This document shows positions 9,876 to 36,315 of a DNA stretch of 64,000 nt, one piece after another (positions within the stretch are counted from its first letter, which is position 1; each line of letters starts with the position of its first letter). This DNA comes from a bacterium (lineage in GTDB: Bacteria > UBA8248): positions 2,240,001 through 2,304,000 of the forward strand of contig OY843592.1 of NCBI GenBank assembly GCA_963692865.2, read 5' to 3'. The notes beneath the pieces are model-generated. The model did not search any database and was not told the DNA's origin. It saw only the letters and a program-made list of their open reading frames with translations. Position numbers and translations under genes: made by a program.

Positions 9876-10025
9876 GGCGTCCTTATCCCGGCCCGGGCGT
9901 TCGGGCCGTCAATTCCCGGATATACCGTGAAGCGAAAGAATCCCGGGGAGAAGGAGATTTTTCTCGGTTTCTCCTCCTCCCCGGGCGCGGCTTTTCGCCG
10001 GATTTCCTCATCCGGGTTGCGGGGT

Positions 10026-11018
10026 CTAGTAGCCTTTCACGACCTCGGCGGGCACCTTCACGCCGCGTTCTTTCCAGTAGCGCGCGGCGGCGGGGTGCAC
10101 CCAGATCTTGTGGACCTTGAGGGCGTTGAAGTTGCCGCTCAGGTCGCGCCAGTAGCGCGCCGTCTTGGTCAACTGCTTGAGGTTGTTGGGATCCGCGATG
10201 ACCTTGAGCATGTTGTAGATGGCGTCGTTGGACATCTTCTTGTGGGCGATCCACCAGACGTCATAGGCGATGGAGCGCGCGGGATCCTTCATCCCCTTGA
10301 CTTCCTTCTGCGGGGGGATGGTGATCGGCACGTAGAACTTGTGGTTGCCGGTCACTTTTTTCTGTTCGGCCTCGGTGAGGCTGATGTAGCGCACCGGCTT
10401 CTGGATGGAGAGCCGGGTGAGGGCCGGGATGGTGAAGGGCGCGCCTGCGGAGCAGTACACGTCGATCTGGCGATCGCCCAGGGCGCGGCCCGAGGCGGCG
10501 AAGCCCAGGTAGCGCGGCTTGATCTTGTCGAGGATGCCGACGGCGGCGAACATGTTCTTGCAGTTCACGTGGCTGCCGGTCCCCTGTTTGAGCAGGTTCA
10601 CCCGCTTGCCGACCATGTCCATGTAGGACTTGATGGGGCTGTCCGCCAGCACGGCGATGATCTGCGACTGCGCGCGGACGTTGGCGACGATGCGGAAGTC
10701 CTTGCTGGCGCCGTCTTTCTTGAACAGGCCGGTGCCCGTCCAGGACTGGTAGACCTGGCCGACGTGGCCCCAGGAGGTGCCGAACTCGCCCAGGCTCACC
10801 CGGCGGACGTTGGCCACCGAGCCGGCCGAGGAGGTGTACTGGAAATAGAACTTCTTGCCGAGTTTTCTGTTGAGAAGCTGGGTGCCTGCGCTGATGGCGG
10901 GATGCCAGCCGCCGCCGGAGGGGCCTCCGCCGAAGCGATGACGCTCGACGGCGTCCGCCGCGCCGATCGTGAACGCCACGGCCGCCGCCACTGTTGCCAG
11001 GAATGCGAATTTCTTCAT
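10026..11018 (-). CDS. TAXI family TRAP solute-binding protein
   Basis: Signal peptide, GGPSGGGW, SAGSVANV, GKRVN..GTG and C-terminal HPAAARYWKE; GGAG RBS. Confidence 0.92.
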   Translation of the reverse strand: MKKFAFLATVAAAVAFTIGAADAVERHRFGGGPSGGGWHPAISAGTQLLNRKLGKKFYFQYTSSAGSVANVRRVSLGEFGTSWGHVGQVYQSWTGTGLFKKDGASKDFRIVANVRAQSQIIAVLADSPIKSYMDMVGKRVNLLKQGTGSHVNCKNMFAAVGILDKIKPRYLGFAASGRALGDRQIDVYCSAGAPFTIPALTRLSIQKPVRYISLTEAEQKKVTGNHKFYVPITIPPQKEVKGMKDPARSIAYDVWWIAHKKMSNDAIYNMLKVIADPNNLKQLTKTARYWRDLSGNFNALKVHKIWVHPAAARYWKERGVKVPAEVVKGY

Positions 11019-18739: not shown

Positions 18740-19711
18740 CTAACCCTTCACCCTATCCAGAATACCCGTCGCCTCCAGGTCTTTGCGGAACGCGTCCTTC
18801 TCCTGTTGCGTCAAGGGCACGATGGGCGGACGCGGCTCTCCGGCGGGCAGGCCGAGCAGCTTAGTCCATTCCTTCAGGTACGCCGTCGTGCGTCCGTTCG
18901 GACCCGTCGTGAAATACTTCTTGCGAACCGCCCGCAGGGGTTCGAGCGAGTAGTTGATCTGCCAGGCCTTCTCAACGTCGCCCGCCATCGCCGCCTCGTA
19001 GTAGTCGCGGATCGGCGTGTAGCCCGGCGCCTGGAACAGATACGGAACGGGCGAGGACATGTGCACCTGCATCCCCAGGTGGAGGAGACTTACCAGAAAG
19101 TGCTCCTCGTTCGGGTCGCAGACGACGATCTCATCCCCCACGCGGCGGCGCACCTCGCTCTGGTGCGCCATGCTGGGCACGGCGTTCTTGATGCAGCAGA
19201 TGTTCTCGATCGTGCAGAGCCGCTCGATGAGTTCGGGGCTGAGCGTGGTTCCCGATTTGGGCTGGTTGAACAACGAGAGCCCGATCTCTATCTGGTCGCA
19301 GATGGTCTTGAAGTAGAGGAAAATCTCGTCGTCGTCGTGCGCGCCGTAGACCGGGTTGATCATGATGGCGTAATCCGCGCCCACTTCCTCGGCGTGCTTG
19401 GTGAGTTCCACCGCCTCTTTGATGTTGATGTGCGGCGTGTGGGGGATGGTCTGCGCGCCGCCCCGGCTCTCCTCGCAGACGATGTGCTGAACGCGCTTTC
19501 GCTCCTCGGGCGACAGCGACCAGAACTCGCCCATCAGTCCGTTGCAGAAAAACCCGTCGATCTTGAGATCGTCGATGCAGGTGCGGACGATCTTGCGGAG
19601 GCCCTCCTCGTCGAGTTCGCCTTCCGGCGTGAAGGGTGTCGTGAGAGCCGCCCAGACGCCCGTCATGTGTTCCCTGCAATACGCTTTCGCTTCCGGTTTG
19701 GTGTATTCCAT
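18740..19711 (-). CDS. Dihydrodipicolinate synthase / class I aldolase family protein (non-DapA paralog)
   Basis: Motifs GVWAALTTPF, NGLMGEFWSLSPEERK, GADYA...NP, Schiff-base Lys in CCIKN, and G.PRPP. Confidence 0.87.
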   Translation of the reverse strand: MEYTKPEAKAYCREHMTGVWAALTTPFTPEGELDEEGLRKIVRTCIDDLKIDGFFCNGLMGEFWSLSPEERKRVQHIVCEESRGGAQTIPHTPHINIKEAVELTKHAEEVGADYAIMINPVYGAHDDDEIFLYFKTICDQIEIGLSLFNQPKSGTTLSPELIERLCTIENICCIKNAVPSMAHQSEVRRRVGDEIVVCDPNEEHFLVSLLHLGMQVHMSSPVPYLFQAPGYTPIRDYYEAAMAGDVEKAWQINYSLEPLRAVRKKYFTTGPNGRTTAYLKEWTKLLGLPAGEPRPPIVPLTQQEKDAFRKDLEATGILDRVKG

Positions 19712-19897
19712 CGTGCGCTCCTCGTGCAAGACGATGCGGAACCAAAGTAACCCACATGGCCGGGCTCGACTCGGCCGGCGTTTATTCTCCTGAATATCTT
19801 TTCATCATATCTTTTTACCCAAAATAACTCACCCAGGGTGCTACCGTCGTGCCTACGACATCCCGATCATTCACCAAGGCCGGTCATCGTTTTTCGC

Positions 19898-21316
19898 CTA
19901 CTCGCCCATCTTCTTGACCAGGGCATCGAAGGCTTTTTGGAACGGCGCTTCCGGCGCGCGGAGGACGCCCGCGCCTATCTGGCCGACGCCCGGTTCGCGG
20001 TGGGCGATTCCGGTGTTGATGACGGGGTAGATGCCCGTCTCGATCACACTGCGCACGTCGATCCCCGTGGGCGCGCCCGCGAAATCAAGGGCGGGCAGGG
20101 TGTAGTCGCGGCTCCTCGCCCAGGTGATGCCGTACATCTCGTTCGTCGCCTGAAAGGCCTCGGCCGTCGAGCCGCCCACGAACTCGACGATGGCGGGCGC
20201 CGCGGCCATCGCGAAGCCGCCCACGCCCAGTGTTTCCATGATGGCTGAATCGCCGATGTCGGGATTGGCGTCCTCTTGTGAGAATCCCGGAAAGAACAGG
20301 CCGACGGGATTCTTCGCGGGCGCCGTGAACCATGCATCCCCCAGGCCGGCGACCCTGATACCGAAATCCGTGCCGTTGCGCGACATGGCATAGACCAGGG
20401 AACAGCCCTCGACCCCCGCCATGGTGTCGAGACTCGCCTTGGCGGCGGGCATCGCCAGGTTCAGGAAGAAGTGATCGTTTCCGGCGAGAAAATCCGCCAC
20501 GCGGGAGAGCACCCCGGTGTCGCTCACGGTCTCCGCAAGGCGGGGCATGATGGCGCGGGCGACCGTCGATGTGGCCGCGACGTTTCGGTTGTGCGCCTCA
20601 TCGCCCATCTGCAGGGCGCGCGCGACGACGTTCTTGATGTCCAGGCCTTCCGGCATAGCGCGGAGCGCCGCGCGCAGGGCGGGGGCGAGTTCGCCCGCCA
20701 TCCATCTCAGGCGCGCCAGCACGTCTTCCGAATACGCCCCGTAGCGCAGCACCTTCCCGAGACCCTCGTTCAGCGTGCAGCAGGCCCTCCCGCCGCCGCC
20801 GAGTTCTTCAGGCGCCCGGTTTTCGATGATGCTCACCGGCATCGAGGGCGACACCACGCCCGCCATCGGCCCCACCGCCGAGTGGTGGTGACAGGGTTCG
20901 AAGGAGATTTCTCCGCTCGCGCAGAGTTTTTCCGCCGCTTCCGCATCCTGCGCCCAGCCTTCCAGAAGAGCCGCGCCGATCATCGCGCCCTTGAGCGGCC
21001 CGGACATGTGTTCCCAAGCGATGGGAGGGCCGGCGTGGAGGAGGGTGCGCTCGCCCATGCCGGGCACCTCCTCTATAGCCACGCCGACGTCCACCCACAC
21101 GGGCCTGGCCGCCTGAAGACGTTCGATGGCGATGTCGTTGGCCGCATCGCAAGAGGTCAAACTGTCGAGGCTTATCGTCATCTCGGGGTCTCCTCCGGCG
21201 GGGGGACGCCAGTCCACCTGCACCACGGGGGCGTTCTGCGCGGCGATGCTTTCGGCGAACAACCCCGCGCCGACGTTGGCGACGCGGACGCCCTCCAGTA
21301 AATTTTTCGCGCTCAT
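19898..21316 (-). CDS. yahG: DUF1116 family protein (YahG/YlbE, AllG-like)
   Basis: YahG-type N-terminus ANVG..LF.E.....VDWRPP; motifs LLHAGPPI, PCHHHSAVGPMAG, NEGLGKVLRYGA, ALQMGDEAHNRN, RNGTDFGI, DIGDSAIMET.G and INTGIAHREPGVGQIGAG. Confidence 0.92.
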   Translation of the reverse strand: MSAKNLLEGVRVANVGAGLFAESIAAQNAPVVQVDWRPPAGGDPEMTISLDSLTSCDAANDIAIERLQAARPVWVDVGVAIEEVPGMGERTLLHAGPPIAWEHMSGPLKGAMIGAALLEGWAQDAEAAEKLCASGEISFEPCHHHSAVGPMAGVVSPSMPVSIIENRAPEELGGGGRACCTLNEGLGKVLRYGAYSEDVLARLRWMAGELAPALRAALRAMPEGLDIKNVVARALQMGDEAHNRNVAATSTVARAIMPRLAETVSDTGVLSRVADFLAGNDHFFLNLAMPAAKASLDTMAGVEGCSLVYAMSRNGTDFGIRVAGLGDAWFTAPAKNPVGLFFPGFSQEDANPDIGDSAIMETLGVGGFAMAAAPAIVEFVGGSTAEAFQATNEMYGITWARSRDYTLPALDFAGAPTGIDVRSVIETGIYPVINTGIAHREPGVGQIGAGVLRAPEAPFQKAFDALVKKMGE

Positions 21317-22863
21317 CGGTCGATGGCCTCAAGCGCACTGGCGGCCGCGAGGCACGCGCCGGCGTGCGTATCCGCCACCACGACGCCCGCCTTTTTCAAC
21401 TTCTGGCGCTGGGAGTCCAAACCCTGCGGGTCGCCCCTCGTTCCCGTGACGGAGGCGATGAACAAGACGCCGGGGCTTGGGGCTTCCTCGATTGCTCTCG
21501 CCGCCTCTCCCGCCGGGTCCTCATGCGCGCCGAGCCCTAGTACCACGTCGAAGAGCACCACCGCCGTTTCTGGGGCACGGGCCTCCTGGACGATGCGCGC
21601 GCTTCTGGGCGCGGGGTCGATCATGGGATGGGGTTTTCCCCGCGTGAAAAGATCGTCGCCCAGGTCCACCACCGCGTGGCCCTCGGATTTCATGGAATTA
21701 GCCATCATGCCTTGGCTCTTGTCGAGGGGCGCGTTGGAGCGAATGTCCGCTACCGAACTGCCGACGATGGCCTGCGCCTCGGCGCACAGCGTCCCGCCCG
21801 TGTAGACGCCGCGCAGGAACCGGCGGCCTCTCTCTCGCGTGCGGCTCCATCCGGCGATCCTTTCTCGCGTTACGGAGTCGAGTTCCGGGGGCGTAGCTTC
21901 GGCGCGGCCCTCGACGAGCGAGACGGCGAGCCTGCCCGCTCCGGCGAGCGAATCCGCCGCGTAAAGACCGGGATACGCCAGGACATCCTCGCTCCGGCCT
22001 CCGACGAAGTGGATGACGGCGGGCTTTCCGCACCGCGCCGTTGCTTTGAGTATCTTCTCCAAAGCGGCGGGCTCTGGCGGTTTTCCGAGAACGAGGAGAA
22101 CTTCCGTCGCGACATCATTCGCGAGGGTCTCGATAGCCTGGATCATGGCGAGGCCGCCTACGGCGTCGGACACGTCGCGCCCGCCGGTCCCAAGCGCGCA
22201 GGAGATTCCGCCGCCCGCTGAGTCGACCGCGGCCATGGCCTCCTGAATCCCCGTGCCGGCGGCGCCTGCGATCCCGATTTTTCCCGGCCGCACCACGTTG
22301 CAAAAACCGAGTCCCACGCCGCCTATGTGAGCCGTTCCGCAGTCGGGGCCCATGACGAGCAGCCCCCGCTCGCGTCCCATGCGTTTAAGCGCCACCTCGT
22401 CTTCAATGGGCACATTGTCGCTGAAAATGAGGCAGTGGAGGTCCTTCTTTAACGCGCGTTCGGCCTCGCGGCGCACGCTCGGACCGGGAATCGAGAAAAG
22501 GGCGAGGTTGATCGCGGGGTCTTTACCGAGGGCGGCTTCGAGCGTGGGCGCCGAGAGATTCATGAACGCGCCCGCTCCGCCGCCTGCGCGGGGCGCAGTG
22601 AGCGCCGCTTCCATCATGGCGAGTTCTTCCTGCGCCTTCTGCGCGTCTTGCGCATCGACGACCAGTACGAGGTCGTTCGGTCCTGCTTCTTTCGCTTCAC
22701 CTGCGAGGAGGCCGCTGGCTGCCAGTTGTTCGAGATTCATCGGCGTGCCCATGAGGGCCGCCGCTTGCCTGATGTGAGCCTTCTCCGAGGCGGCGGCGCT
22801 GATGCGCATGAGCTTCACCGAGTCGTGGTACGCGCCCGATAAGACGCGGACGGCCAGCGCCAT
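21313..22863 (-). CDS. fdrA: Acyl-CoA synthetase-like FdrA (YahF / AllF-like)
   Basis: Motifs YHDSVKLM, MGTPMN, FSDNVPIEDEVALK, MGPDCGT, GTGIQE, GTGGRD, GGTLCAE and DLGDD.FT.GKPHPMIDP. Stop overlaps the DUF1116 start. Confidence 0.92.
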   Translation of the reverse strand: MALAVRVLSGAYHDSVKLMRISAAASEKAHIRQAAALMGTPMNLEQLAASGLLAGEAKEAGPNDLVLVVDAQDAQKAQEELAMMEAALTAPRAGGGAGAFMNLSAPTLEAALGKDPAINLALFSIPGPSVRREAERALKKDLHCLIFSDNVPIEDEVALKRMGRERGLLVMGPDCGTAHIGGVGLGFCNVVRPGKIGIAGAAGTGIQEAMAAVDSAGGGISCALGTGGRDVSDAVGGLAMIQAIETLANDVATEVLLVLGKPPEPAALEKILKATARCGKPAVIHFVGGRSEDVLAYPGLYAADSLAGAGRLAVSLVEGRAEATPPELDSVTRERIAGWSRTRERGRRFLRGVYTGGTLCAEAQAIVGSSVADIRSNAPLDKSQGMMANSMKSEGHAVVDLGDDLFTRGKPHPMIDPAPRSARIVQEARAPETAVVLFDVVLGLGAHEDPAGEAARAIEEAPSPGVLFIASVTGTRGDPQGLDSQRQKLKKAGVVVADTHAGACLAAASALEAIDR

Positions 22864-22883
22864 GTCACTCGCTCCCCCGGAGG

Positions 22884-23603
22884 CTAGTCGTTGATGATCG
22901 CCACCGCGCGAATGGGGGAGCCCGACATGCCGCGGAACTTGATGGGCAGCACCGAGAGCTTGAACCCGTGGGACTTGGGGATGAGGTTCAGGTTTATCAT
23001 GTTCTCGATGTGGCAGTAGTCTTTCTCCAGCATGACCCGGTGGGCCTCCCAGTAGCTGCGCGTCTCGTGCATCTTCCAGATAGGCACGTCCCAGCCGCTC
23101 GCGTCGATCCCCATCACGCGGACCCCGTTGTCGATGAGGTAGTGGGTCGCCTCCGCGCTCATGCCGGGCTGGTTCATCGTGTAGTCGGGGTTCGTCTGCC
23201 AGTCCACGCTCGCATCGGTGCGGATGAGCACGATGTCGAGCGGCTTGAGCGCGTAGTCGATTTTCTTGAGCGCGCCTTCCACGTCCGCCGCCGTGATGGC
23301 GTAGCCCGATTCCCTGTCGGTGAAATCGAGGACGACGCCGTCCGAGAGGCACCATTCGAGCGGGATGCGCTCGGTCGTGAAGGCGTCGGGGTTGTTGTGC
23401 CAGGGGGAGTCGATGTGCGTGCCGGTGTGGTCGCTCATGAAGATGACGCAGTGGTTGGTCACGATGGGGGCGCCGTAGTCGATGGCGCCCGTCCGCCTTG
23501 CCACGGTGTCCCAGTCCTCGTCGACGGTGAGGGAGGGGCCGGGCAGGTCCGGGTAAATCGGCATGTCCCGGTATATTTCCATGCTCAGATCGATCAATTC
23601 CAT
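22884..23603 (-). CDS. Cyclase family metal-dependent hydrolase (kynurenine formamidase / isatin hydrolase-like)
   Basis: HTGTHIDSPWH metal motif, DIVLIRT, GIDA, HIEN and GSPIRAVA. Confidence 0.9.
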   Translation of the reverse strand: MELIDLSMEIYRDMPIYPDLPGPSLTVDEDWDTVARRTGAIDYGAPIVTNHCVIFMSDHTGTHIDSPWHNNPDAFTTERIPLEWCLSDGVVLDFTDRESGYAITAADVEGALKKIDYALKPLDIVLIRTDASVDWQTNPDYTMNQPGMSAEATHYLIDNGVRVMGIDASGWDVPIWKMHETRSYWEAHRVMLEKDYCHIENMINLNLIPKSHGFKLSVLPIKFRGMSGSPIRAVAIIND

Positions 23604-23751
23604 CTCGGAGGTCTCCTATAGGAGGAAGAAAAGAAACGATCTCCATCTTGAGTGGTCGGTTCATCATGGGAAGCGTATGCAATGCGCGCATTATGTATGA
23701 ACCCGAAGCGGCGGGCAACGCATCCGCTTTCGTCGCGAACAGGATGCGACG

Positions 23752-23970
23752 GGGGTTGTTGAAAAAGCCGGACCTGGGAGCGAGCGCGTTTGTAGTTCGT
23801 CGTATGGCCACCGTATCGACCTCATCCTGAGTAGCCGCCGAAGGCGGCGTATCGAAGGATGGGAGGCGCTTCTCCGCGAACTTCGCCCTTCGATACGCGG
23901 CTTCCGCCGCTACTCAGGGTGAGGGTGTTGGGGACGGCGGAGCCTGCCCTGAGCGAAGTCGAGGGGGCGG
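23752..23970. repeat. TIR left end plus CCTGAGTAG...TATCGAAGG / CCTTCGATAC...TACTCAGG REP-like doublet
   Basis: GGGGTTGTTGAAAAAG starts at 23752. The inverted pair at 23826-23923 closely matches 51112-51224. Confidence 0.75.
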
Positions 23971-24198
23971 CTGCTCGGGGTAAGATCCATACAGCGGCCA
24001 AGTAGGGCGAGGGGACGGGCCGCAGGGGAGGGGAATCCGCGTTACAAGCCGGAAACATAAAACCCGTATATTTTGAATTTGAGAATACATAAGGCATACT
24101 GGCTGCATAGCGACAAGGATAAAACCTGAGTCTCCCGAGCGGCGGCGCGCGGAGACGAGTTTTCGCATTTTCACACCACATGCGGGGAGTGCGCCTTC

Positions 24199-25140
24199 TT
24201 GTCTCTCTTGTTCGACATATCCCTGTTCCAGCTCACCATGCTCATGATGGCGCCCCTCATCATCGCGTGCCTGGGCGAGACCATCATCGAGCGCTCGGGG
24301 ATTCTGAACGTCGGCATCGAGGGGGTCGTGACGCTCGGCTCGGTGACGGGTTTTCTGCTCACCTACTACTCGGGCAGCGCGTTCATCGGCTGTCTGGTCG
24401 CGGCGCTCTCGGGGAGCGCCCTGACGCTGCTTCTGGCGTATTTCTCCATCACCCTTCGTGCGAACCAGATCGTGATCGGGCTGGGGATTTTTGTCCTGGG
24501 GCTGGGGATATCGCCCACCATCTACCGGTTGGCGGTAGGGGTGGTTCAATCGATTCCCCAGGTGCCGACGTTGAAAGAGATAAGCATCCCCGTTCTGGGC
24601 GGCATCCCCTTCATCGGCGAGATTTTCTTCCGGCAAAACGGACTCGTCTACATGTCCTATTTCCTGGTCGCGGCGGTGAGTTTTTTCCTCTTCAAGACGC
24701 CGCTGGGTCTGAGGCTGCGCGCCTGCGGGGAAAACCCCCGCGCGGCGGACACGGTGGGCATAGACGTCGCCCGCATGCGCTACGGCGCGTGCGTGGTGGG
24801 CGGGCTTTTCCTGGGCGTGGCGGGCGCCTACCTGCCGCTCGTGATATCGGGTTCGTTCACGGACAACATTGTGAACGGAAGAGGTTGGCTCGCCCTGATG
24901 CTGGTGATCTTCGGGCGCTGGGTGCCGGTATGGTCGTTCGTCGGCGCGCTGCTCTTCGCGTACGTGGACGCCTTCCAGTTCAAGGTGAACGCCCTGCCGC
25001 AATACGCCAAGATCATACCGCCGCAGTTTTTGCTGATGCTGCCGTACGTGTTCGCCATGATAGTTCTGGTCCAGGTCGCGCGGGGCGCCGAAAGCCCGCG
25101 CGCGCTCACCAGGCCATACGACCGTGAAGCCCGGGATTGA
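24199..25140 (+). CDS. Nucleoside/purine-type (BMP-associated) ABC transporter permease
   Basis: Motifs ERSGILNVGIEG, GLRLRACGENPRAA, GRGWLAL..VIFGRW and MLPYV. Confidence 0.9.
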   Translation: MSLLFDISLFQLTMLMMAPLIIACLGETIIERSGILNVGIEGVVTLGSVTGFLLTYYSGSAFIGCLVAALSGSALTLLLAYFSITLRANQIVIGLGIFVLGLGISPTIYRLAVGVVQSIPQVPTLKEISIPVLGGIPFIGEIFFRQNGLVYMSYFLVAAVSFFLFKTPLGLRLRACGENPRAADTVGIDVARMRYGACVVGGLFLGVAGAYLPLVISGSFTDNIVNGRGWLALMLVIFGRWVPVWSFVGALLFAYVDAFQFKVNALPQYAKIIPPQFLLMLPYVFAMIVLVQVARGAESPRALTRPYDREARD

Positions 25141-25183
25141 ACCCATGTCCGGGATATTGTGTTTCTCATCGAGGAGGTATGAC

Positions 25184-26185
25184 ATGAAAACCAAATGGAC
25201 ACGCCGATTGTTCTTCGCCGCCGCCGCGCTCGCGGCCCTTGCCCTGATCGCACCCGGCCAGGCGCTCGCCGCGAAGGCCCACAAGTTCGCCGTCATCCTG
25301 CCCGGACCCATCGAGGATGCGGACTACAACTTCCGCGGCTATGAAGTCGCCCAGGACATCAAGAAGAGGTTCAAGATCGAAACCTCCTACTCCGAGCGCA
25401 TCTCGCCGGCGGACGCCGAGCGGGTGGCGCGCGAGTACATATCCTCGGGCTTCACCATCATCGGCTTCCACGGCGGGCAGTACGTCCGGCTCGTGCAGAA
25501 GCTGGCGCCGAAATTTCCCGACACCATTTTCGTCATGGAGAGTTCGGGCAAGTTCAAGGTTCCCAAGAACGTCTGGAACATTCACCGCCACTATTTCGAG
25601 GCCTTCTATCCCTTCGGCGTGCTGGCCGGCCTCTCGACCAAGACGAACAAGGTGAGCGTCATCGCGGGAATCCCGCTGCCGGACTTCAAGGCTTCCATCA
25701 ACACCATCTCGGACGCGCTCAAGGCGACCAACCCCAAGGCGCAGCTCACCTACGCCTTCACCGGAAACCAGAACGACCCGGTCAAGGCGCGCCAGACCGC
25801 CGACGCCATGATCGCGAACGGCGTCGACTTCATCATCAACATGGTGAACCTGGGCGTGTACGGGGTCGCCGAGGCCGCCAAGAAGGCGAAGCGCAAGGTG
25901 CTGGTCACCACCTTCTACACCGACAAGACGGACAAGGCGCCCGAGCATTTCGCCGGTACGCTGATCATCGATTTCCGGCCTCCCTACCGGCAGGTCATGG
26001 CGGGAGTCATGAAAGGCGCCAGCGGGGGTTATGTCGCCATGCGTTCGGGGAACGGCTTCGAGCTCGGTCCGATGTCCAACGTATCCGCCGAGGCCATCAA
26101 AAGAACCAAGGAGACGTATGAAAAAGTCCGTAGCGGAGCGATCAAGCCCCGGCTCGCAATGAAGAAGGTCATGTTGGCGAAATAG
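25184..26185 (+). CDS. BMP family ABC transporter substrate-binding protein
   Basis: GAGGAGG RBS, signal peptide, PGPIED.DYN, G.LAG..TKTNKV and FTG..NDP.KA. Confidence 0.87.
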   Translation: MKTKWTRRLFFAAAALAALALIAPGQALAAKAHKFAVILPGPIEDADYNFRGYEVAQDIKKRFKIETSYSERISPADAERVAREYISSGFTIIGFHGGQYVRLVQKLAPKFPDTIFVMESSGKFKVPKNVWNIHRHYFEAFYPFGVLAGLSTKTNKVSVIAGIPLPDFKASINTISDALKATNPKAQLTYAFTGNQNDPVKARQTADAMIANGVDFIINMVNLGVYGVAEAAKKAKRKVLVTTFYTDKTDKAPEHFAGTLIIDFRPPYRQVMAGVMKGASGGYVAMRSGNGFELGPMSNVSAEAIKRTKETYEKVRSGAIKPRLAMKKVMLAK

Positions 26186-26240
26186 GGCACCTGAGCGCCC
26201 CGCCGCTAGCTGGGTGGGGCGCCTGGAACGGAAGAATGTA

Positions 26241-27791
26241 ATGACGGAAAAAACCGCCGCTTGCGTCGAGATGCACGGCGTCAGCAAGTCTTTCGGGCAG
26301 GTCCGCGCCTTGGACGCGGTCGACTTCGAGGCCGCCAAGGGGGAGATCCACGCCCTCCTGGGGGAGAACGGCGCGGGCAAGACCACGCTCATGAACATCC
26401 TGAGCGGCCTCTACCGCATGGACGAGGGGCGAATCGCGGTCGAGGGGCGCGAGGTGGATATCCACTCCCCGCAGGATGCCATCGCGGTCGGCGTCGGGAT
26501 GGTGCACCAGCACGTGGAGTTGATCGGCAACTTCACCGCGCTCGAGAACATCCTGCTCGGCCGGGAGGGCTCGCGCTGGAAGCTCGACGTCGAGGCCCGG
26601 CGAAGTTCCGTGGAGGAGCTTGCGGCGAATTACGGCCTCTCCATCCCTCTGGACGAGCAGGTGAAGACCCTGCCTGCCGGGATTCAGCAGAAAGTCGAAA
26701 TCCTGAAGGCGCTATATCACGGCGCGGACATCCTGATTCTCGATGAGCCGACGACCATGCTCACCCCCCACGAGGTGGACGGGCTGTTCTCGATCCTCAA
26801 GTCCTTCGCCAAGGGGGGGCTGACGGTCGTCTTCATCACGCACAAGATACAGGAGGTCCTGGACAACTGCGACAGGATCACCGTGTTCCGCGGCGGGCGG
26901 AAGATCGACACCATCCTCCGCGATGAAGCCACCCGCGAGCGGCTGGTCCAGATGATGATGGGCGAGCGCGGCATGCCGCCAGAGGGCGAGCGGCCGGCCG
27001 GACCCTCGGCGGCCCGGGAGGGGGGGGCCGCTCTTTCCGTCCGGGGAGTGCGCACCTCGGCGAAGTGGGGGGTTCCTCTCAGGGACGTCGCCTTCGACGT
27101 CCCCCGGGGGCTCATCGTCGGCATGGCGGGCATCTCGGGAAACGGACAGAAGGAACTGGCGGAAGCCCTGGCCGGAATCATCGAAGTCGAAGCGGGCGAG
27201 GTCCACATAGACGGCGAGGAGGTATCCAGCCTTTCGGTGGCCGGGCGCATCTCGCGGGGAATGAGCCTCCTGCCGCAGGACAGGATAGAGGAGGGGATTC
27301 TGCCGGGGCTGAGCCTGGCCGAGAACTTCGTGCTGGGCCTCCACCCGCACATCTTCAAGCGTCGAGGAATTTTCGAGCGCGAGGCCGCCTTTGAACTCGG
27401 CAGAAACGCGATTGCGGAATTCAACATCCTGGCGAGGAACGAGCACGCGCCCGCGGCGCATCTATCGGGCGGAAACATCCAGAAGACCATCGTGGCGCGC
27501 TCGGTCATGCTCGCCCACAAGACGGGCGGGAAGGTGATGATCGCCAACAACCCCACGCGGGGGCTCGACGTCATGGCCGCCTCGTTCGTGCACGGCCGCC
27601 TGAGCGAGCTTCGCGCGGGCGGCGCGGGCGTCCTGCTGATATCCGAAGACCTGGACGAGCTCTGCCTGATGAGCGACCGCATCGTCGTGATCTATGCGGG
27701 GGAGATTCTGGGCGCCTTCGACGGCCCCGAGTACGACATCTACCAGATAGGCGCCTTGATGGCGGGCCAGAAAAAGGGGGCGGGTTCTTAA
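26241..27791 (+). CDS. ABC transporter ATP-binding protein (two-domain, carbohydrate/nucleoside type)
   Basis: Walker A GENGAGKT, GMVHQH, LILDEPT, LSGGNIQK, PTRGLDV and ISEDLDEL. Confidence 0.93.
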   Translation: MTEKTAACVEMHGVSKSFGQVRALDAVDFEAAKGEIHALLGENGAGKTTLMNILSGLYRMDEGRIAVEGREVDIHSPQDAIAVGVGMVHQHVELIGNFTALENILLGREGSRWKLDVEARRSSVEELAANYGLSIPLDEQVKTLPAGIQQKVEILKALYHGADILILDEPTTMLTPHEVDGLFSILKSFAKGGLTVVFITHKIQEVLDNCDRITVFRGGRKIDTILRDEATRERLVQMMMGERGMPPEGERPAGPSAAREGGAALSVRGVRTSAKWGVPLRDVAFDVPRGLIVGMAGISGNGQKELAEALAGIIEVEAGEVHIDGEEVSSLSVAGRISRGMSLLPQDRIEEGILPGLSLAENFVLGLHPHIFKRRGIFEREAAFELGRNAIAEFNILARNEHAPAAHLSGGNIQKTIVARSVMLAHKTGGKVMIANNPTRGLDVMAASFVHGRLSELRAGGAGVLLISEDLDELCLMSDRIVVIYAGEILGAFDGPEYDIYQIGALMAGQKKGAGS

Positions 27792-27792
27792 G

Positions 27793-28869
27793 ATGGCTGG
27801 TTCGGGCGCGGCGGGTTTGGCCGAGAAGAAAAAAATAGTCCTCGACTTCGCGGTCACCTACGCGGCGGCGGGCGCGCTGGCGCTGGCGTGCGGGGCCGTC
27901 TTCATCGTCGCCTTCGGAGGCGACGTGCTCGTGGCGCTCGGCACGGTGCTGCGCTCCTCGCTCGGCACGTGGGGCGGGTTCGCGCAGACGCTCAACAAGT
28001 TCTGCCCGCTCCTGCTCGCCTCGCTCGCGGTGGCCTTCGGGATGCGCGGCGGCCACTTCAACATCGGCGTGGACGGGCAGATATACGCGGGCGCGATCGG
28101 CATGACGGGCACGGCCTTCGCGCTTGAGGGCATGAACCTCCCCTGGCCGATCTTCGTCCCGCTGGGACTGCTGGGCGGCGTTCTGGGCGGGTGGTTCTGG
28201 GGCTTCATTCCGGGGATCCTGCGCGTGCGCTTCCAGGTGAGCGAGATTTTCGTGACGGTGATGCTGAACTTCGTGGCGCTCTATCTGGTGGACTACCTCG
28301 CGAACGGCCCCTGGAACGACCCGCTGGCGGGAGAGGCCATCTCGCTCCCGATCCCAGACGCCTCGGTCCTCCCCCAGGTGATGCCGAAGGCGGGCGCGCA
28401 CGCGGGCTTCATCATCGCGCTGGCCGCCGCCGTGGGGATGTACTTCTTCATGACGCGCACCATCGCGGGCTACGAGATCCGCGCGGTGGGCGACAACCCC
28501 CGGGCCGCGCGCTTCGGCGGCATCAACGTCGCGCGCGTCACGCTCATCATCATGCCGACCTGCGGCGCGCTTTCGGGACTGGCGGGCGCGCTCGAGGTCT
28601 CGGGCTTCCACCAGAGCCTGCTGCTCGGCATCAGCGGGGCGGAGGGCGCGCCCAACTACGGCGCGATGGCCATCCTCATCGCCGTCATCGGGCGTAACAA
28701 CCCCCTGGGCGTCACGATAGCGGCCGCGGTGTTCGCGGTGCTGGTGTCGGGTTCGGATTCGCTCCAGAGGAGCATCGGCCTGCCGGGGGCCGCCGTGTTC
28801 GTCTTCCAGGCCATCATCGTGCTCACGGTGGTGTTCGTGCAGGCGCGGCGCGAAATCAGGGCGGGGTAG
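27793..28869 (+). CDS. Nucleoside-type ABC transporter permease
   Basis: Motifs FNIGVDGQ, SEIFVTVMLNF, GYEIRAVGDNPRAA..GI and GRNNPLG. Confidence 0.9.
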   Translation: MAGSGAAGLAEKKKIVLDFAVTYAAAGALALACGAVFIVAFGGDVLVALGTVLRSSLGTWGGFAQTLNKFCPLLLASLAVAFGMRGGHFNIGVDGQIYAGAIGMTGTAFALEGMNLPWPIFVPLGLLGGVLGGWFWGFIPGILRVRFQVSEIFVTVMLNFVALYLVDYLANGPWNDPLAGEAISLPIPDASVLPQVMPKAGAHAGFIIALAAAVGMYFFMTRTIAGYEIRAVGDNPRAARFGGINVARVTLIIMPTCGALSGLAGALEVSGFHQSLLLGISGAEGAPNYGAMAILIAVIGRNNPLGVTIAAAVFAVLVSGSDSLQRSIGLPGAAVFVFQAIIVLTVVFVQARREIRAG

Positions 28870-28881
28870 GGGGGTTGGTTC

Positions 28882-29590
28882 TGTAGGGACAGGCCTCCGT
28901 GCCTGTCCTGATGAAGTCCCCCGCCCCGATGAAGACAAAGGACAACCACGGAGGGTTGTCCCTACGGGGTCGGTGGCCGGAATGACGAGGTGGGCGGACA
29001 CGCAGGTCCGCCCCTACAACCCCATCGCGTTTTGCGTAGGGGAGGACCCATGTGTCCTCCCAGCGCGCGCATTCATGACCCACCGCGGCATCTGCCCGAA
29101 ACGAAAATCGGGCGGACACGCAGGTCCGCCCCTACCATATCATCGTCCACGCCAATCGGGTTTCACCACCGCCGTCATTCCGGCGAATGCCGGAATCCAG
29201 AGCCGATGAGAAGGCCAAATTAAGGCGTTCCATTTCCTCGTTCATTCGCCCGGAACGACGGCCAAAAAACGAAAAAACAAAGTCCCTGGATTCCGGCATT
29301 CGCCGGAATGACGATCCAAACCAGATCGGACAGGTCGCGACCTGTCTGTGGTGCCGGCGCCTTTGCAGGGGACGCATACATGCGTCCCACATGCCACGAA
29401 CCGGTCGGGTCGCATATATGTAGCGCTCCCGAGAAGGGAGCGCTACATACAGAAAACCTGGACCGCCGTAGGGACAGGCCCCTGCGCCTGTCCGGGCGAA
29501 GGACAACCACGGGGGCAGGGCGGACACATGGGTCCGCCCCTACAACCCCATCGCGTTTTGCGTAGGGGAGGACCCATGTGTCCGCCCGCA
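28882..29590. repeat. BIME/REPIN-like cluster of GTAG-type REPs plus a GTCATTCCGG...CCGGAATGAC doublet
   Basis: Repeated GGGCGGACAC.CAGGTCCGCCCCTAC / GTAGGGGAGGACCCATGTGTCC pairs with the conserved spacer AACCCCATCGCGTTTTGC; GTAGGGACAGG...CCTGTCC pairs; inverted 28-bp pair near 29173-29200 and 29287-29313. Confidence 0.85.
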
Positions 29591-29593
29591 TCC

Positions 29594-30697
29594 CTACGCC
29601 GCCCGGACGACCACCGCGACGGGTCCGCCGCCGGGAGGCCCCTGGTGCTCGGCCCCGCCGGAGACGTAGGTCATCGGCTCGCCCACGACGGAGGAGACCA
29701 CGGCGTTCACGACCGCGCGCGCGTGGCGCGTGTTGTTGATGTCCGAGTCATCGAGCATGGTGTGCCTGCGCCCGCGCACGAGGCCGTCGGGTGAGGCCTC
29801 GCACTTGGCGAAGACGTTGACGATCCTCGCGCGCTGCTCATTTGTGAGCGACCAGTCGAACCCGACGCCCGCGTTCACTAATGCCGAGCGCACCGCGTCG
29901 CGGTCGATGGCGTCCTGCATGACGCTGTGGCCGACCACCAGGTCCCCGCCCCAGGCCGCGCTGTTTCCGATTATCATCACCTCGTTGCACATGAGCTCTA
30001 TCCCCGCCGAAGTCGAGGCGACGCCGGATTGCAAAGACCAGTCCCTGCAGACCACCTCGTCGCTCAGTTGGCTCTCATCCAACTCGCCCGCCGCGAGCGC
30101 CACGCCGAGCGCGGATGCGCCGCGCGAGTAGCCCATGGATTTATACGTGTCCTCCGTGCAGACGCTCTTCCCGCGCGCTAAAGCCTCCGCCATGCGATCG
30201 CCCGTCAGGAGGGGGCACTTCACCTGTACGAAATGGAGGTCTTCCGCGCTCTCTATCTGCGCTTCCGCCATCAGCCGACGCACGAGGTCCGCCGTCGCGT
30301 GGACCTGCGCCATACGGCCCATTTCCTCGGGCAGAAAATCCGCGGTGTGGCCGGATGCGATGGCGAGGCGCTTCGCGCTCCCGTCGCCGCTTCCGCTATC
30401 GGACTTCGTGAACACCGAGAAGTGCGGACACATGACTCCTTCCGTTCCGCCGGACATGATGAGGGCGATCTGCGCCTCCACCTCCTCGCGTGGTTTTCCC
30501 ATCGTTCTTGAAAAATAATCGAGCAGGACGAAGTTGCTGAACCCGCGCGAAAAATCGTTCACGCAGCCGTTGCCCTCGGTCTTGCCCATGATTCCGACGA
30601 TCTCTTCGGGCCGGCATTTGCCGTCTTCGATGAGAGCGGCCACGCCGGAGATGTCGTCGGGCGAGTCCATCGCCACGCGGAACAAGTCGGCCTGCAT
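29594..30697 (-). CDS. atzD: Ring-opening amidohydrolase, cyanuric acid amidohydrolase (AtzD/TrzD) / barbiturase family
   Basis: Motifs GKTEGNGCVNDFSRG, MSGGTEG, HFVQVKCPLLT, SMGYSRGASALG, STSAG, RRHTMLDDSDINNTRHARA and YVSGGAEHQGPPGGGP. Confidence 0.9.
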   Translation of the reverse strand: MQADLFRVAMDSPDDISGVAALIEDGKCRPEEIVGIMGKTEGNGCVNDFSRGFSNFVLLDYFSRTMGKPREEVEAQIALIMSGGTEGVMCPHFSVFTKSDSGSGDGSAKRLAIASGHTADFLPEEMGRMAQVHATADLVRRLMAEAQIESAEDLHFVQVKCPLLTGDRMAEALARGKSVCTEDTYKSMGYSRGASALGVALAAGELDESQLSDEVVCRDWSLQSGVASTSAGIELMCNEVMIIGNSAAWGGDLVVGHSVMQDAIDRDAVRSALVNAGVGFDWSLTNEQRARIVNVFAKCEASPDGLVRGRRHTMLDDSDINNTRHARAVVNAVVSSVVGEPMTYVSGGAEHQGPPGGGPVAVVVRAA

Positions 30698-30854
30698 CTT
30701 GCGTCCCCCTTTTGCGTAAGGCGCGCCCACGCGCGCTGGTGGAAACCGGAATTGTTTATGGAAAAAAAACGTAGCACCCAATCCTAAGCCTGTCCAAAGG
30801 GGGGCGCTATAGAAGCAGGGAAGGGAGTGTTTTCCGACCTTCGGGATTGCTCTC

Positions 30855-31014
30855 CGTCATTCCGGCTTTCGCCGGAATGACGAACAAGGGCGTAGAGGAA
30901 AAACAAATAGAGCCCGCAGCCCCTCTTGCCTCGACTGGAAAACCAACCCTCCTGTTCCCCCTCCTCAGGGGGTAACGGCGATACTCCCGACAAAGGCTTT
31001 ACCAACAACCCCCC
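30855..31014. repeat. Collapsed REP hairpin plus MITE-like right-end module
   Basis: CGTCATTCCGGCTTTCGCCGGAATGACG hairpin; 30932-31012 resembles 60386-60493 and ends in TTTACCAACAACCCC. Confidence 0.6.
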
Positions 31015-31100
31015 ACTCGCGTTTGACGAGGGGGGGCTTCTTTTTTACAGTAGTGAGCATACGCGAGGATTCCAATCGACCCGACTCCGGGGAGATGCGC

Positions 31101-31379
31101 ATGACGACGTACGAATACCTCAACCTCATCGCTTCCTACGGCGGCCTCGCGCTCATCTACTACGGCATCCGCGAGATGGCCAGGGGGGCCGACAGGCGCT
31201 CCGCCGACTCCGAACGCAAGCACGCCGAGGCGATGGCGGAATCCCGCCGCAGGAAGGGAGATGGCATCCGTAAACACGAAGAAGCGATGCGCAAGCATGA
31301 CAAGGAGATGGCCGACTCCGAGCGCAGGCACGAGGAGTCTATGGCGGCCCTGCGCGCGCTCATCGAGCGAACCGGCTGA
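31101..31379 (+). CDS. Small membrane-anchored coiled-coil protein with an internal repeat
   Basis: GGGGAG RBS, N-terminal hydrophobic helix, repeated DSER(K/R)H.E.MA unit, host-like codon usage. Confidence 0.7.
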   Translation: MTTYEYLNLIASYGGLALIYYGIREMARGADRRSADSERKHAEAMAESRRRKGDGIRKHEEAMRKHDKEMADSERRHEESMAALRALIERTG

Positions 31380-31396
31380 TCGAAACCGACCGAGAC

Positions 31397-31595
31397 GGGG
31401 TTGTTGAAAAAATTCGTATGTGATCCTTGCACACCGCCAACGCCTCTTTCCTCACCCTGAGCAGCCGCCGGAGGTAAAACGCGACTGAGAAAGGAGCGTT
31501 TGTATCGAAGGGCGCTCCCTCGATACGGCGCGCAAGCGCGTCTACTCGGGATGAGGGGGTAAATTCCGCCCGAGGATGACTTTTTCAGCAACCTC
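31397..31595. mobile_element. Non-autonomous MITE-like element of about 200 bp
   Basis: TIRs GGGGTTGTTGAAAAA and TTTTTCAGCAACCTC. Internal and terminal modules are shared with 51295-51480. Confidence 0.7.
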
Positions 31596-31655: not shown

Positions 31656-32573
31656 ATGCCGATTGAACTGAAGGACGTTTGGGATTTTCATACCGATCTG
31701 CGCTTTCTGGCGGATTTGTCCGGTGAGAACGCCTACATTTTAGAGCAGATAGACATCCCCACGGCGGCGAAGCTGGGCGGGGTTTTCTCGGCCCTGGGCA
31801 GACTGGCGGGTGCCTCGCAGAAGGTGCAAATCACGGCGCTCGAACGCGACTTGAGACTGGTTCGGGAATCAGAGGGTCTCGACGCCGTCCTCACCCGGAA
31901 GGACCTGGAAGGGGCGGGGAAGCAGGTGATCCACGCGGAAGGCGTCTATTTCATTGAGACGGAAGGCGACTTCAAAGGCCTCGAATGGCTCTGGGAGGAG
32001 GGGGCGCGGAGCGTCGCGCCGCTTTACAACGAGGACAACGCGCTGGGCGGCGGCGCCCAGGGCGACCCCGCCCGCGGCCTCACCCCCCTGGGCCGCGATT
32101 TCCTGATGGAGGCCTGGCGGACGGGTTTCATGGTGGATTGCGCGCACGCGAACCACCAGACGAAATCGGACATGATCGATCTCGCCCTCGTCACCGGCCA
32201 GGAGATGCACTACTCCCACGGCCATCTGGACGATCCGGTGTTGCCCTTCTTCGGCGAACGCGGGTTGCCGCGCGATATGGCGAGGCGGCTGCTGGAGACG
32301 GGCGCGCTCATCGGCCTTACGCCGTACCCCGAGTTCGTGGACGAGTTCGAGCGTCACCTGGAGGAAATCGAGTTCCTTGCCGAAATCGCCGCCCATCAGG
32401 TCGTGCTGGGCAGCGATTTCGCGGGCATCAACCGCGTGTTCGATGAATTCAGGGGCATCCGGGCGATAGGGGACTTCGCAGGGCGTCTCGCCGCCGCGCA
32501 CGGGGAGGATTTCGCCCGCTCCTACTGCGGCGGCGCGCTCAAGGCCTGTCTCGAACGCTCCTTGCCGGAGTGA
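31656..32573 (+). CDS. Membrane dipeptidase (M19)-like amidohydrolase
   Basis: Motifs DFHTD, HAEG, YNEDNALGGG....RGLTPLG, VDCAH, YSH and LGSDF. Confidence 0.75.
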   Translation: MPIELKDVWDFHTDLRFLADLSGENAYILEQIDIPTAAKLGGVFSALGRLAGASQKVQITALERDLRLVRESEGLDAVLTRKDLEGAGKQVIHAEGVYFIETEGDFKGLEWLWEEGARSVAPLYNEDNALGGGAQGDPARGLTPLGRDFLMEAWRTGFMVDCAHANHQTKSDMIDLALVTGQEMHYSHGHLDDPVLPFFGERGLPRDMARRLLETGALIGLTPYPEFVDEFERHLEEIEFLAEIAAHQVVLGSDFAGINRVFDEFRGIRAIGDFAGRLAAAHGEDFARSYCGGALKACLERSLPE

Positions 32574-35230: not shown

Positions 35231-35316
35231 CGCCGCCCTTTCTCACCCGAGGCCGATGACAGGCGCTTCGCCGGCCCCCGGAAGGCGCTTCGCCCTCCGG
35301 GGGAGCCGGGAAACGT

Positions 35317-36315
35317 CTAGTTTACGTTATAGCCCTTCGCCTTCCAGTAGCGCGCGGCGCCGGGGTGGAGCTTCATGTTGAAGTTGCCCATCTGCTTGAT
35401 GAACCCGTCCGACTTGGCGGCGAAGTCCAGCCCGATCTTCCAGCCCTTGAAGACGTTGATCAGGAAGTCGCGGTTCGCCTTGTCGTACACCCGCCGCGTC
35501 ACCTCGTGGATGACGTCGTTGGGCACCTTCTCGTTCGCCACGGCGAAAATGGTGTAGGCGACCGTCTTGAACTTCTTGCCCTTCATCCCCTGATAGGGGC
35601 TGGCGTCCTTGTTGTCCTTGTAATAGCCCGAGCTCAGGGCGACGAACTTGTCGCGCACCTTGTCGGGAATGCTCAGGATGCGGAGCGGGCCGCTGCGCGA
35701 GGCGCGCAGAATCGAGGGCGAGGGCACCGGGTTCGGGATGCCGAAGGCGTCGAGCTTGCCGTCGATCATGTTGGTGGCGGCCTGGGCCCAGCCCATGTAG
35801 TCCTTGCGGATCTTGTCGGTGATCCCCAGGTTGTCGGTGATGAACTTCATCATGAACAGCGTGGAGCTTCCCCTCGGGCCCATGTTCACCCGCTTGCCGG
35901 CGAGATCGTTATAGGTCTTGATGCCGGACTTGTGGAACGTCGTCACCTGGAACCAGGAGGTCGACACCGGGCCGATCCCCCGGATGGTCATCATCGCCTT
36001 GCCCTTGTGGAAGGGTTTCTGCTTGCGCTGGATGAAGTCGACGAAAATCCCGTTCGTCATTCCGATCTCCGACCGCCCGCTGGCGACGAGGCGGGTGTTG
36101 GCGACGAAGCCCTTGGACTCGCGGTTGGTGACGTTGACGGTCTTGCTCGTCTTGTTCACCGCCTCGGCGAGGCCCGCCGCCATGCGGAACGCGCCCGCGC
36201 CCTTGCCCGCGCCGACGATGGTGATGTTGGTGGTGGCGGCGCTCGCCAGGGAGGCGACGAAAGCCGCCGCGGCGAAAACGCCAATCGCTGTAATGAATCT
36301 TTTGTGCTTACGCAT
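35317..36315 (-). CDS. TAXI family TRAP solute-binding protein
   Basis: Signal peptide, SKGFVAN, DLAGKRVNMGP.GS and LHPGAARYWK; GGAGGAG RBS. Confidence 0.92.
   Translation of the reverse strand: MRKHKRFITAIGVFAAAAFVASLASAATTNITIVGAGKGAGAFRMAAGLAEAVNKTSKTVNVTNRESKGFVANTRLVASGRSEIGMTNGIFVDFIQRKQKPFHKGKAMMTIRGIGPVSTSWFQVTTFHKSGIKTYNDLAGKRVNMGPRGSSTLFMMKFITDNLGITDKIRKDYMGWAQAATNMIDGKLDAFGIPNPVPSPSILRASRSGPLRILSIPDKVRDKFVALSSGYYKDNKDASPYQGMKGKKFKTVAYTIFAVANEKVPNDVIHEVTRRVYDKANRDFLINVFKGWKIGLDFAAKSDGFIKQMGNFNMKLHPGAARYWKAKGYNVN

Follow-up and report, generated by a model that had tools for sequence, protein, structure and literature searches.

A cyanuric acid hydrolase clustered with FdrA and AllG homologues suggests that cyanuric acid is probably broken down by phosphorolysis with a gain of ATP

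s-Triazine herbicides, melamine and pool-chlorine stabilisers all lead to cyanuric acid as an end point. Known pathways for its breakdown begin with a ring-opening enzyme (AtzD or TrzD) and continue with either AtzEG, AtzH and AtzF or BiuH and AtzF/TrzF, and to our knowledge the process is taught as purely hydrolytic. The compound is also natural, being secreted by Paramecium and measurable in seawater (PMC12342508). Phosphorolysis has been described for oxalurate in Escherichia coli, in which AllF, AllG and AllH (AllFGH) split oxalurate with phosphate into carbamoyl phosphate and oxamate, after which the catabolic carbamate kinase AllK makes ATP (Kim and Kim, 2024, PMC11326118). In the triuret and biuret clusters of nitrifiers, bmpA-nupABC and allFGHK adjoin trtA/biuH, and no atzD was reported in those genomes (PMC12625717). 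Here we describe a gene cluster in a 64,000-nucleotide stretch of a bacterial genome of the GTDB lineage UBA8248 (assembly GCA_963692865.2, contig OY843592.1, positions 2,240,001–2,304,000 of the forward strand; hereafter the window), in which a cyanuric acid hydrolase (CAH) gene accompanies homologues of FdrA/AllF and AllG (the DUF1116 subunit), a cyclase-family amidohydrolase and a BMP-type ATP-binding cassette (ABC) importer. We think it fairly likely that this locus is a module for cyanuric acid uptake and breakdown whose downstream half would be phosphorolytic rather than hydrolytic. In the open literature, which was the scope of our search, we found no paper coupling a CAH to AllFGH, and the sole paper treating both gene sets was PMC12625717.

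On sequence grounds the ring-opening enzyme is a cyanuric acid hydrolase. On NF052395, the NCBIfam equivalog for cyanuric acid amidohydrolase (cut-off 360), it scored 534 bits and aligned to model positions 2–363 of 364; on PF09663 it scored 503 bits. In comparisons with PDB entries it matched TrzD (5t13) over the full length with 492–494 bits, 6bum with 466, 4bvq with 401–403 and the barbiturase 5hwe with 275. The stretch VQVKCPLLT, the only catalytic stretch that we read from the alignment, is identical to that of TrzD and includes the TrzD domain-2 catalytic lysine (PMC5366886). In a tree of 92 CAH rows, the window enzyme and TrzD fell into one clade of 19, of which 13 rows were linked to FdrA/AllG, four were on short contigs and two were unlinked. 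The choice among cyanurate, barbiturate and parabanate, which had been left open in an earlier reading of the sequence alone (the original prediction), thus gives way to cyanuric acid, based on the equivalog match and the placement with TrzD. As for the start of the gene, the listed open reading frame (ORF) extends to a TTG at 30781, and homologues and family models begin at 30697.

The pairing of CAH with FdrA and AllG extends well beyond this genome. We collected 80 CAH-anchored metagenome loci, with CAHs 49–90% identical to that of the window (nearest homologues, not a random sample), and scored their context genes with home-made profiles. All 80 CAHs exceeded the equivalog cut-off. FdrA/AllG was present in 29 of these loci, carbamate kinase in 24, AllH (the DUF2877 subunit) in 22 and an isochorismatase or amidase in 16, and the share with FdrA/AllG rose with the length of flank, to 17 of 33 loci at 10 kb or more and 12 of 19 at 15 kb or more. 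The linked loci ranged in G+C from 0.29 to 0.71, and their genes were almost always on the same strand as CAH, typically in the order CAH-AllH-FdrA-AllG-kinase or FdrA-AllG-CAH-kinase. The CAH of one of them (L127) agrees at each of 369 aligned residues with PDB 5t13, which is TrzD of Acidovorax citrulli (PMC5366886). Aminobacter sp. SR38, a soil bacterium in culture, likewise encodes a TrzD-identical protein on its plasmid pSR8, where the RefSeq gene order is hypothetical protein, fdrA, DUF1116, ring-opening amidohydrolase, arcC, amidohydrolase, BMP protein, ABC ATPase, two permeases and DUF2877. A second version of the cluster, CAH-NCS2 symporter-DUF2877-fdrA-DUF1116-arcC, was found at 99% identity or more in 47 plasmid records from nine genera, mostly Enterobacterales.

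Both plasmid versions lie near signs of mobility, the TrzD version on an IncP conjugative plasmid by an IS3 transposase and the 47-plasmid version beside IS26. Another recurrent neighbour is a conserved membrane protein of ~400–430 amino acids with 7–13 hydrophobic segments, which adjoins CAH in 28 of the 80 metagenome loci (for example L127:2271-3482, L137:268-1500, L166:2835-4136, L145:11139-12440 and L132:11133-12413) and is annotated as 'hypothetical protein' on pSR8 and on a Citrobacter freundii plasmid. It matched no Pfam family, apart from one weak match to Na_H_antiporter, and had no homologue in the window's genome; it is a candidate cyanurate transporter.

Within the phylum the arrangement is conserved, as the original prediction had proposed to check. 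In 11 close relatives (found with FdrA; their labels include Nitrospinota, and several are from sponges), the cyclase-FdrA-AllG series was kept in every case, with identities to the window of 75–84% for FdrA, 85–92% for AllG and 94–97% for the cyclase, and the importer and CAH were kept in all seven relatives whose stretch extends far enough. In a set of 51 genomes of the phylum, which partly overlaps these 11 loci and is therefore not independent of them, 27 had a window-type CAH. In 14 of the 27 it lay on the same contig as an FdrA-linked AllG, 8.6–14.6 kb away; in ten the two genes were on different, mostly short contigs, and one genome had no AllG. The synteny in 14 genomes indicates that the arrangement is not due to chance.

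Within the genus, the distribution of carbamate kinase follows that of the window-type CAH. All 15 genomes of the genus with a window-type CAH encode a carbamate kinase, which is inside the cluster in 14 of them (directly beside CAH in 12 and about 4.7 kb beyond AllG in two), and of eight congeners lacking the window-type CAH, seven also lack the kinase. The window's genome is the sole exception with respect to location: its kinase is at C1:2975085, 705 kb away (NF009007, 322 bits; cut-off 266). Dispersed repeats upstream of the window's CAH gene occupy the place at which 12 congeners hold the kinase gene, which suggests a repeat-mediated rearrangement.

The two presumed transferase subunits of the window resemble their E. 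coli counterparts to different degrees (FdrA is 38% identical to AllF and AllG is 52% identical to AllG; the genome's carbamate kinase is 39% identical to its counterpart), and FdrA matched PDB 3dmy (FdrA) with 254 bits. Residues 3–51 of the window AllG match positions 504–552 of NF004760, which correspond to the C-terminal tail of the E. coli-type FdrA model; the boundary between the two subunit genes has thus shifted, which fits a physical complex. In a tree of 99 AllG rows, the window protein belonged to a clade of 13 (support of 100 in the Shimodaira–Hasegawa-like approximate likelihood ratio test, SH-aLRT) on a long stem of 0.45–0.58, apart from the E. coli/Bacilli clade that holds the characterised oxamate carbamoyltransferase and has no link to CAH. 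Mapping CAH linkage onto this tree required at least eight changes, so the pairing was formed or kept in many AllG lineages.

The third subunit is encoded elsewhere. A Pfam profile search of the genome found a single AllH/DUF2877 gene at C1:2055849, 204 kb from the cluster, next to genes for a MoxR-type AAA ATPase, a 657-amino-acid protein without family match and a ketopantoate-reductase-like protein (L006:5794-11110); only the profile detected it, as a tblastn search of the genome with E. coli AllH at 1e-5 gave no match. PF11392 (AllH) had no match in the window or in any of the 11 relatives' loci. AllH is nonetheless a single-copy gene in all 22 congeners, including those without the cluster, never within it, and 150 kb to 1.2 Mb from it in the eight genomes that have both on one contig, and in sister genera it adjoins a carbamate kinase. 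The two-subunit transcarbamylase raised as a possibility in the original prediction is therefore not indicated: all 22 congeners retain the unlinked AllH, and at 19 of the 29 FdrA/AllG loci linked to CAH the AllH gene is in cis. A complex prediction of the window FdrA with the unlinked AllH returned a score of 0.00, which is no answer and speaks neither for nor against their association.

The genome holds further copies of the other two subunits. A second FdrA (NF004760, 463 bits) is at C1:2383832-2386837, between a UbiX-type prenyltransferase and an amidase-signature gene, with no AllG or AllH nearby. A second AllG at C1:1135594-1138103 is coupled directly to a PRK05985/cytosine-deaminase-like amidohydrolase, without FdrA. 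The PRK05985-type amidohydrolase also follows the AtzD-like gene in locus L067 and is present in 18 of the 80 CAH loci.

What might such a cluster do? In structure, the open-chain compounds to which CAH gives rise are N-carbamoyl amides like oxalurate, which is itself an N-acylurea. Carboxybiuret has the build of oxalurate and differs from it by one inserted NH, and biuret can be described as carbamoylurea and allophanate as carbamoyl-carbamate. Because CAHs and the BiuH/TrtA-like hydrolases found beside FdrA, AllG and the kinase all make polyureides, we propose that FdrA-AllG phosphorolyses one or more of these compounds. The BMP-type ABC system would import cyanuric acid or a close ureide, and CAH would open the ring to carboxybiuret, from which loss of CO2 can give biuret. 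FdrA-AllG, most likely with the unlinked AllH made in trans, would then move the terminal carbamoyl group of a polyureide (carboxybiuret, biuret and allophanate are the candidate substrates) to phosphate, and carbamate kinase would convert the carbamoyl phosphate and ADP to ATP, NH3 and CO2. The cyclase probably takes an amide off the substrate or off the leftover amide, replacing BiuH, AtzE or AtzF, for a net yield of ammonia and one, possibly two, ATP per ring. If CAH instead releases biuret, the transferase would yield urea along with carbamoyl phosphate, and the last step would fall to the urease of the genome. We infer each substrate in this scheme, and the phosphorolytic reaction itself, from the identities of the genes and their genomic company. 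Tentatively, and with somewhat less confidence than for the window itself, we extend the proposal to AllFGH-type enzymes beside CAHs at large, which may be polyureide:phosphate carbamoyltransferases that support substrate-level phosphorylation with up to two ATP per ring, with the cyclase of the sponge-associated clade as an added amide-cleaving step.

FdrA loci without CAH bear on the same question. Among 69 FdrA-anchored loci outside the clade, 48 had AllH, 20 a cyclase and 22 a carbamate kinase. In Chloroflexota, Verrucomicrobiia and Xanthobacteraceae, loci without CAH (L075, L079, L084, L088, L089, L093, L095, L097, L098, L042 and L045) contain AllH-FdrA-AllG-carbamate kinase together with a BiuH-like isochorismatase. 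The isochorismatases of these loci score 258–283 bits, and the range over all such genes examined in Chloroflexota and other loci is 258–293, under the BiuH cut-off of 370, so that they are BiuH-like rather than assignable to BiuH; their place beside AllFGH and the kinase fits a polyureide substrate for those enzymes too. An additional search with PF09663 of 400 further genomes of the class of L067 gave no matches, the family being too rare there for a linkage test.

The window's genome was also searched for the enzymes of the hydrolytic route. The original prediction had remarked that AtzE, AtzF, BiuH, DUF2877 and carbamate kinase were missing, and within the window this holds (in its called genes, Pfam detected no amidase, isochorismatase, DUF2877 or amino-acid-kinase domain), but the genome does encode AllH and carbamate kinase. 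Its description of the system as having no biuret or allophanate hydrolase stands genome-wide for the former, since the best of four isochorismatases reached 116 bits against the NCBIfam BiuH cut-off of 370, but appears to fail for the latter: two near-identical amidases of ~459 amino acids exceed the cut-off of the allophanate hydrolase model TIGR02713 (597–599 versus 511 bits), matching the amidase part of the model only. Both are unlinked to the cluster and lack the C-terminal domain. The genome has 19 amidase-type matches; five of these amidases were scanned for AtzE, and the best of the five reached 244 bits, short of the cut-off of 461. Urease genes are present as well.

The genome also encodes a second CAH (C1:3149854-3150939, locus L008:9346-15491; NF052395, 402 bits versus 360), of a type present in most genomes of the genus, which has no FdrA/AllG nearby and neighbours a TRZ/ATZ-family amidohydrolase, a RidA-like protein and a flavin amine oxidase. 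Separately, contig C3:1-20000 repeats, in inverted order, the gene series of C1:3338000-3357999, which includes three amidases, among them one that resembles allophanate hydrolase. The repeat reflects either a duplication or redundancy in the assembly; the contamination estimate of the genome is 6.69%.

The carbamoyl-phosphate route predicted in the original reading is well supported by comparative genomics, in which FdrA/DUF1116 and the AtzD-family gene behave like a single functional unit tied to carbamoyl phosphate. Several observations weigh against a phosphorolytic pathway. In the CAH tree, a separate clade of 29 rows has no row linked to FdrA/AllG, and 24 rows with at least 8 kb of flank lack these genes. 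The E. coli enzyme needs AllH, which is missing from the window's cluster, and the carbamate kinase gene lies outside the window. The authors of the TrzD study propose an enzyme-assisted decarboxylation with release of biuret, not carboxybiuret (PMC5366886), which would change the substrate of the transferase. In addition, the unlinked amidase-only allophanate hydrolase homologues and the urease could carry a hydrolytic flux.

Some of these points suit a different explanation, in which two separate nitrogen-scavenging pathways lie side by side: FdrA-AllG(-AllH)-kinase would act on oxalurate derived from purines or allantoin, and the CAH product would end as ammonia through spontaneous decarboxylation and through hydrolysis by the cyclase, amidases and urease. 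Urease and allophanate-hydrolase-like amidases are encoded in the genome. The sole characterised member of the transferase family uses oxalurate (PMC11326118), allFGHK beside biuret and triuret genes has been read as a separate oxalurate pathway (PMC12625717), and in two of the 27 phylum genomes with a window-type CAH (G009 and G007, of sister family f4) CAH is unlinked from an AllG-carbamate kinase pair. We nevertheless consider this explanation unlikely. A Pfam scan found no allantoin or ureidoglycolate genes in the window, E. coli AllE had no match in the genome, and the AllD-like matches there were paralogues of only 29–33% identity. Often the CAH gene lies inside a single operon with AllG on one side and carbamate kinase on the other (L127, L129 and L143), and five-gene operons of CAH-AllH-FdrA-AllG-kinase occur without any oxalurate-forming gene (L137). 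Carbamate kinase, moreover, tracks the window-type CAH within the genus, and the AllG clade of the window is separate from that of E. coli and Bacilli, which lacks the link to CAH.

The importer of the window bears on the identity of the compound taken up. A Pfam scan showed it to be complete, with a binding protein, two permeases and an ATPase with two nucleotide-binding domains, in the unusual order permease-binding protein-ATPase-permease (24199–28869) that the original prediction had pointed out. The likely start of the binding protein is MKTKW at 25184, followed by a signal-peptide-like stretch. This protein has no NCBIfam equivalog (best match 61 bits versus a cut-off of 400), and the best NCBIfam match of the ATPase, 'putative B6 ABC transporter ATP-binding protein', at 435 bits, is under its cut-off of 670. 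A BMP importer is also present in the TrzD cluster, and BMP importers occur in the published biuret/triuret clusters (PMC12625717); we regard the window's BMP protein as a candidate cyanurate or ureide receptor. It is quite improbable, in our judgement, that the module degrades some other cyclic ureide or nucleobase analogue (a substituted isocyanurate, a barbiturate or an azapyrimidine), with CAH as only the nearest label. The binding protein does belong to a nucleoside/nucleobase-type family, related clusters contain permeases of the xanthine/uracil and cytosine/purine types as well as PucR regulators, and two distant FdrA/AllG-linked AtzD-like proteins (L067 and L090) score 339 and 320, below the CAH cut-off. 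The window enzyme, however, scores far higher on the CAH equivalog than on barbiturase and groups with TrzD, whose cyanuric acid activity is established (PMC5366886), and every one of its 80 metagenome homologues is above the cut-off. That FdrA-AllG depends on ATP or CoA and works as a ligase or in the manner of a synthetase on a pathway carboxylate (the old label being 'acyl-CoA synthetase FdrA') is very improbable, for although FdrA shares its CoA-binding and CoA-ligase domains with succinyl-CoA synthetase alpha and the AllG clade of the window sits on its long separate stem, carbamate kinase is recurrently and tightly linked and the characterised homologue makes carbamoyl phosphate without CoA or ATP (PMC11326118).

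The cyclase distinguishes the clade of the window from other CAH clusters. Its PDB matches are distant (56 bits to the metal-dependent hydrolase 8hmo, 42 to kynurenine formamidase and 40 to isatin hydrolase). The protein contains the sequence HTGTHIDSPWH (HxGTHxDxPxH-like), which we take to be the His/Asp metal motif of the family. Only two of the 80 CAH-anchored metagenome loci have a cyclase, both of them clade relatives, and among CAH clusters the gene is, as far as the sampled loci indicate, peculiar to this clade. A role as a general substitute for AllH is not supported, given that other lineages have both, in the order AllH-FdrA-AllG-cyclase; within this clade the cyclase might still take that place. 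At 4.3 kb from the second CAH of the genome there is another cyclase-family gene, a hint that a CAH-derived compound is what the cyclase acts on. Its most likely task is amide cleavage, either ahead of the transferase step or following it.

In the window, the cyclase gene is first in a minus-strand operon, followed by FdrA, which starts 14 nt past the cyclase stop, and AllG, whose start codon overlaps the FdrA stop (ATGA). The importer diverges from this operon, and the CAH gene converges on the importer (Table 1). Profile scans with Pfam and NCBIfam confirmed the gene set and coordinates of the original prediction.

Table 1. Features of the cyanuric acid hydrolase locus, with positions counted from the first letter of the window.
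Feature	Position	Strand	Matches and remarks
DHDPS-family aldolase-like gene, doubtful module member	18740–19729	minus	PF00701, 160 bits; 168 nt downstream of AllG
AllG-like/DUF1116 subunit, 472 aa	19898–21316	minus	PF06545, 311 bits (cut-off 27); PDB 3clq, 408 bits
FdrA/AllF-like subunit, 518 aa, succinyl-CoA-synthetase-alpha-like	21313–22869	minus	NF004760, 450 bits (cut-off 433); PF00549 and PF02629
Cyclase-family metal-dependent amidohydrolase (kynurenine formamidase/isatin hydrolase type), 239 aa	22884–23603	minus	PF04199, 129 bits
Dispersed repeat between cyclase and permease 1 (divergent intergenic region)	23752–23984		up to 162 genome copies (blastn)
ABC permease 1	24199–25140	plus	PF02653, 108 bits; relatives 94–98% identical
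BMP/PnrA-family substrate-binding protein	25184–26185 (ORF from 25124)	plus	PF02608, 113 bits
ABC ATPase, two nucleotide-binding domains	26214–27791	plus	PF00005 twice, 150 bits
ABC permease 2	27793–28869	plus	PF02653, 125 bits; relatives 92–97% identical
Non-coding dispersed-repeat block between permease 2 and CAH gene	28872–29589		up to 132 genome copies
Cyanuric acid hydrolase (CAH; AtzD/TrzD family), 367 aa	29594–30697	minus	NF052395 and PF09663
Dispersed repeats upstream of CAH gene	30841–31560		up to 67 genome copies

Three small ORFs (28856–29119, 29132–29527 and 31023–31379) were considered as genes, AtzG- or AtzH-like ones included, and rejected: they have no family match and lie inside dispersed repeats. 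Read depth spiked at the repeat in the divergent intergenic region in four of four runs and was very high over the repeat block between permease 2 and CAH. The DHDPS-like gene was likewise rejected as a member of the module. Four of the 11 relatives' loci have it: in L025 it neighbours AllG, and in the others inserted genes part it from AllG. None of the 69 FdrA loci outside the clade has it (the metagenome loci were not searched for it). Farther out, the region has a TAXI-type TRAP transporter on each side, at 7407–11018 and 32627–36315, which pairs an NMT1_3 binding protein with a long fused DctM-type membrane protein, and an M19 dipeptidase-like gene lies at 31656–32573. In one sponge metatranscriptome run (X23), contig pieces 88–98% alike covered AllG, the cyclase, permease 1, the binding protein, the ATPase, permease 2 and CAH; such libraries can contain DNA and the contigs give neither level nor strand, making this a weak trace from which we claim no expression.

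If the proposal is correct, the pathway gives ATP, which would help to explain its presence in anaerobes and energy-limited symbionts, and the oxamate carbamoyltransferase family would gain a second, probably more widespread, class of substrates. The classical trzD neighbours would gain a proposed function. Such a phosphorolytic pairing would be the commonest genomic context of the CAHs sampled, classical TrzD and the nine-genus plasmid module included. The sponge-associated organism may draw nitrogen and, to a minor extent, energy from cyanuric acid or polyureides.

Compared with the described systems, the locus appears to assemble a probable phosphorolytic, ATP-yielding cyanuric acid route from known enzyme families, to which this clade adds a cyclase and from which it splits off AllH. 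It shares with E. coli AllF-AllG-AllH and AllK (PMC11326118) homologous FdrA and DUF1116 subunits, with DUF2877 and carbamate kinase encoded in the same genome, and the predicted chemistry would by analogy be the same (an N-carbamoyl amide and phosphate giving carbamoyl phosphate and then ATP). It differs in having AllH outside the operon, no allantoin genes, linkage to CAH, a BMP importer and a cyclase, and an AllG of a separate clade that carries the FdrA C-terminal tail, and the presumed substrate is a polyureide, not oxalurate. With the hydrolytic cyanurate pathway it has in common the ring-opening enzyme and the end products, NH3 and CO2, but FdrA-AllG and the cyclase (plus carbamate kinase in the congeners' clusters) stand in place of BiuH, AtzE or allophanate hydrolase.

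The nitrifier triuret/biuret clusters (PMC12625717) similarly place a BMP importer beside polyureide hydrolases and allFGHK, but their entry enzymes are TrtA and BiuH, whereas that of the window is a CAH, accompanied by a cyclase and with no AllH in cis. Loci outside the clade with cyclase-FdrA-AllG (20 of the 69) have the cyclase beside FdrA-AllG as in the window, but with AllH present, no CAH and an AllG of another clade; carbamate kinase and cyclase occur together only in L035. The plasmid clusters, both that of pSR8 TrzD and the 47-plasmid version, share CAH, fdrA, DUF1116 and carbamate kinase with the window's lineage (the kinase in congeners), and pSR8 has the BMP importer as well. They have DUF2877 in cis and the Pfam-less membrane protein and lack the cyclase, whereas the clade of the window has the cyclase and keeps DUF2877 unlinked.

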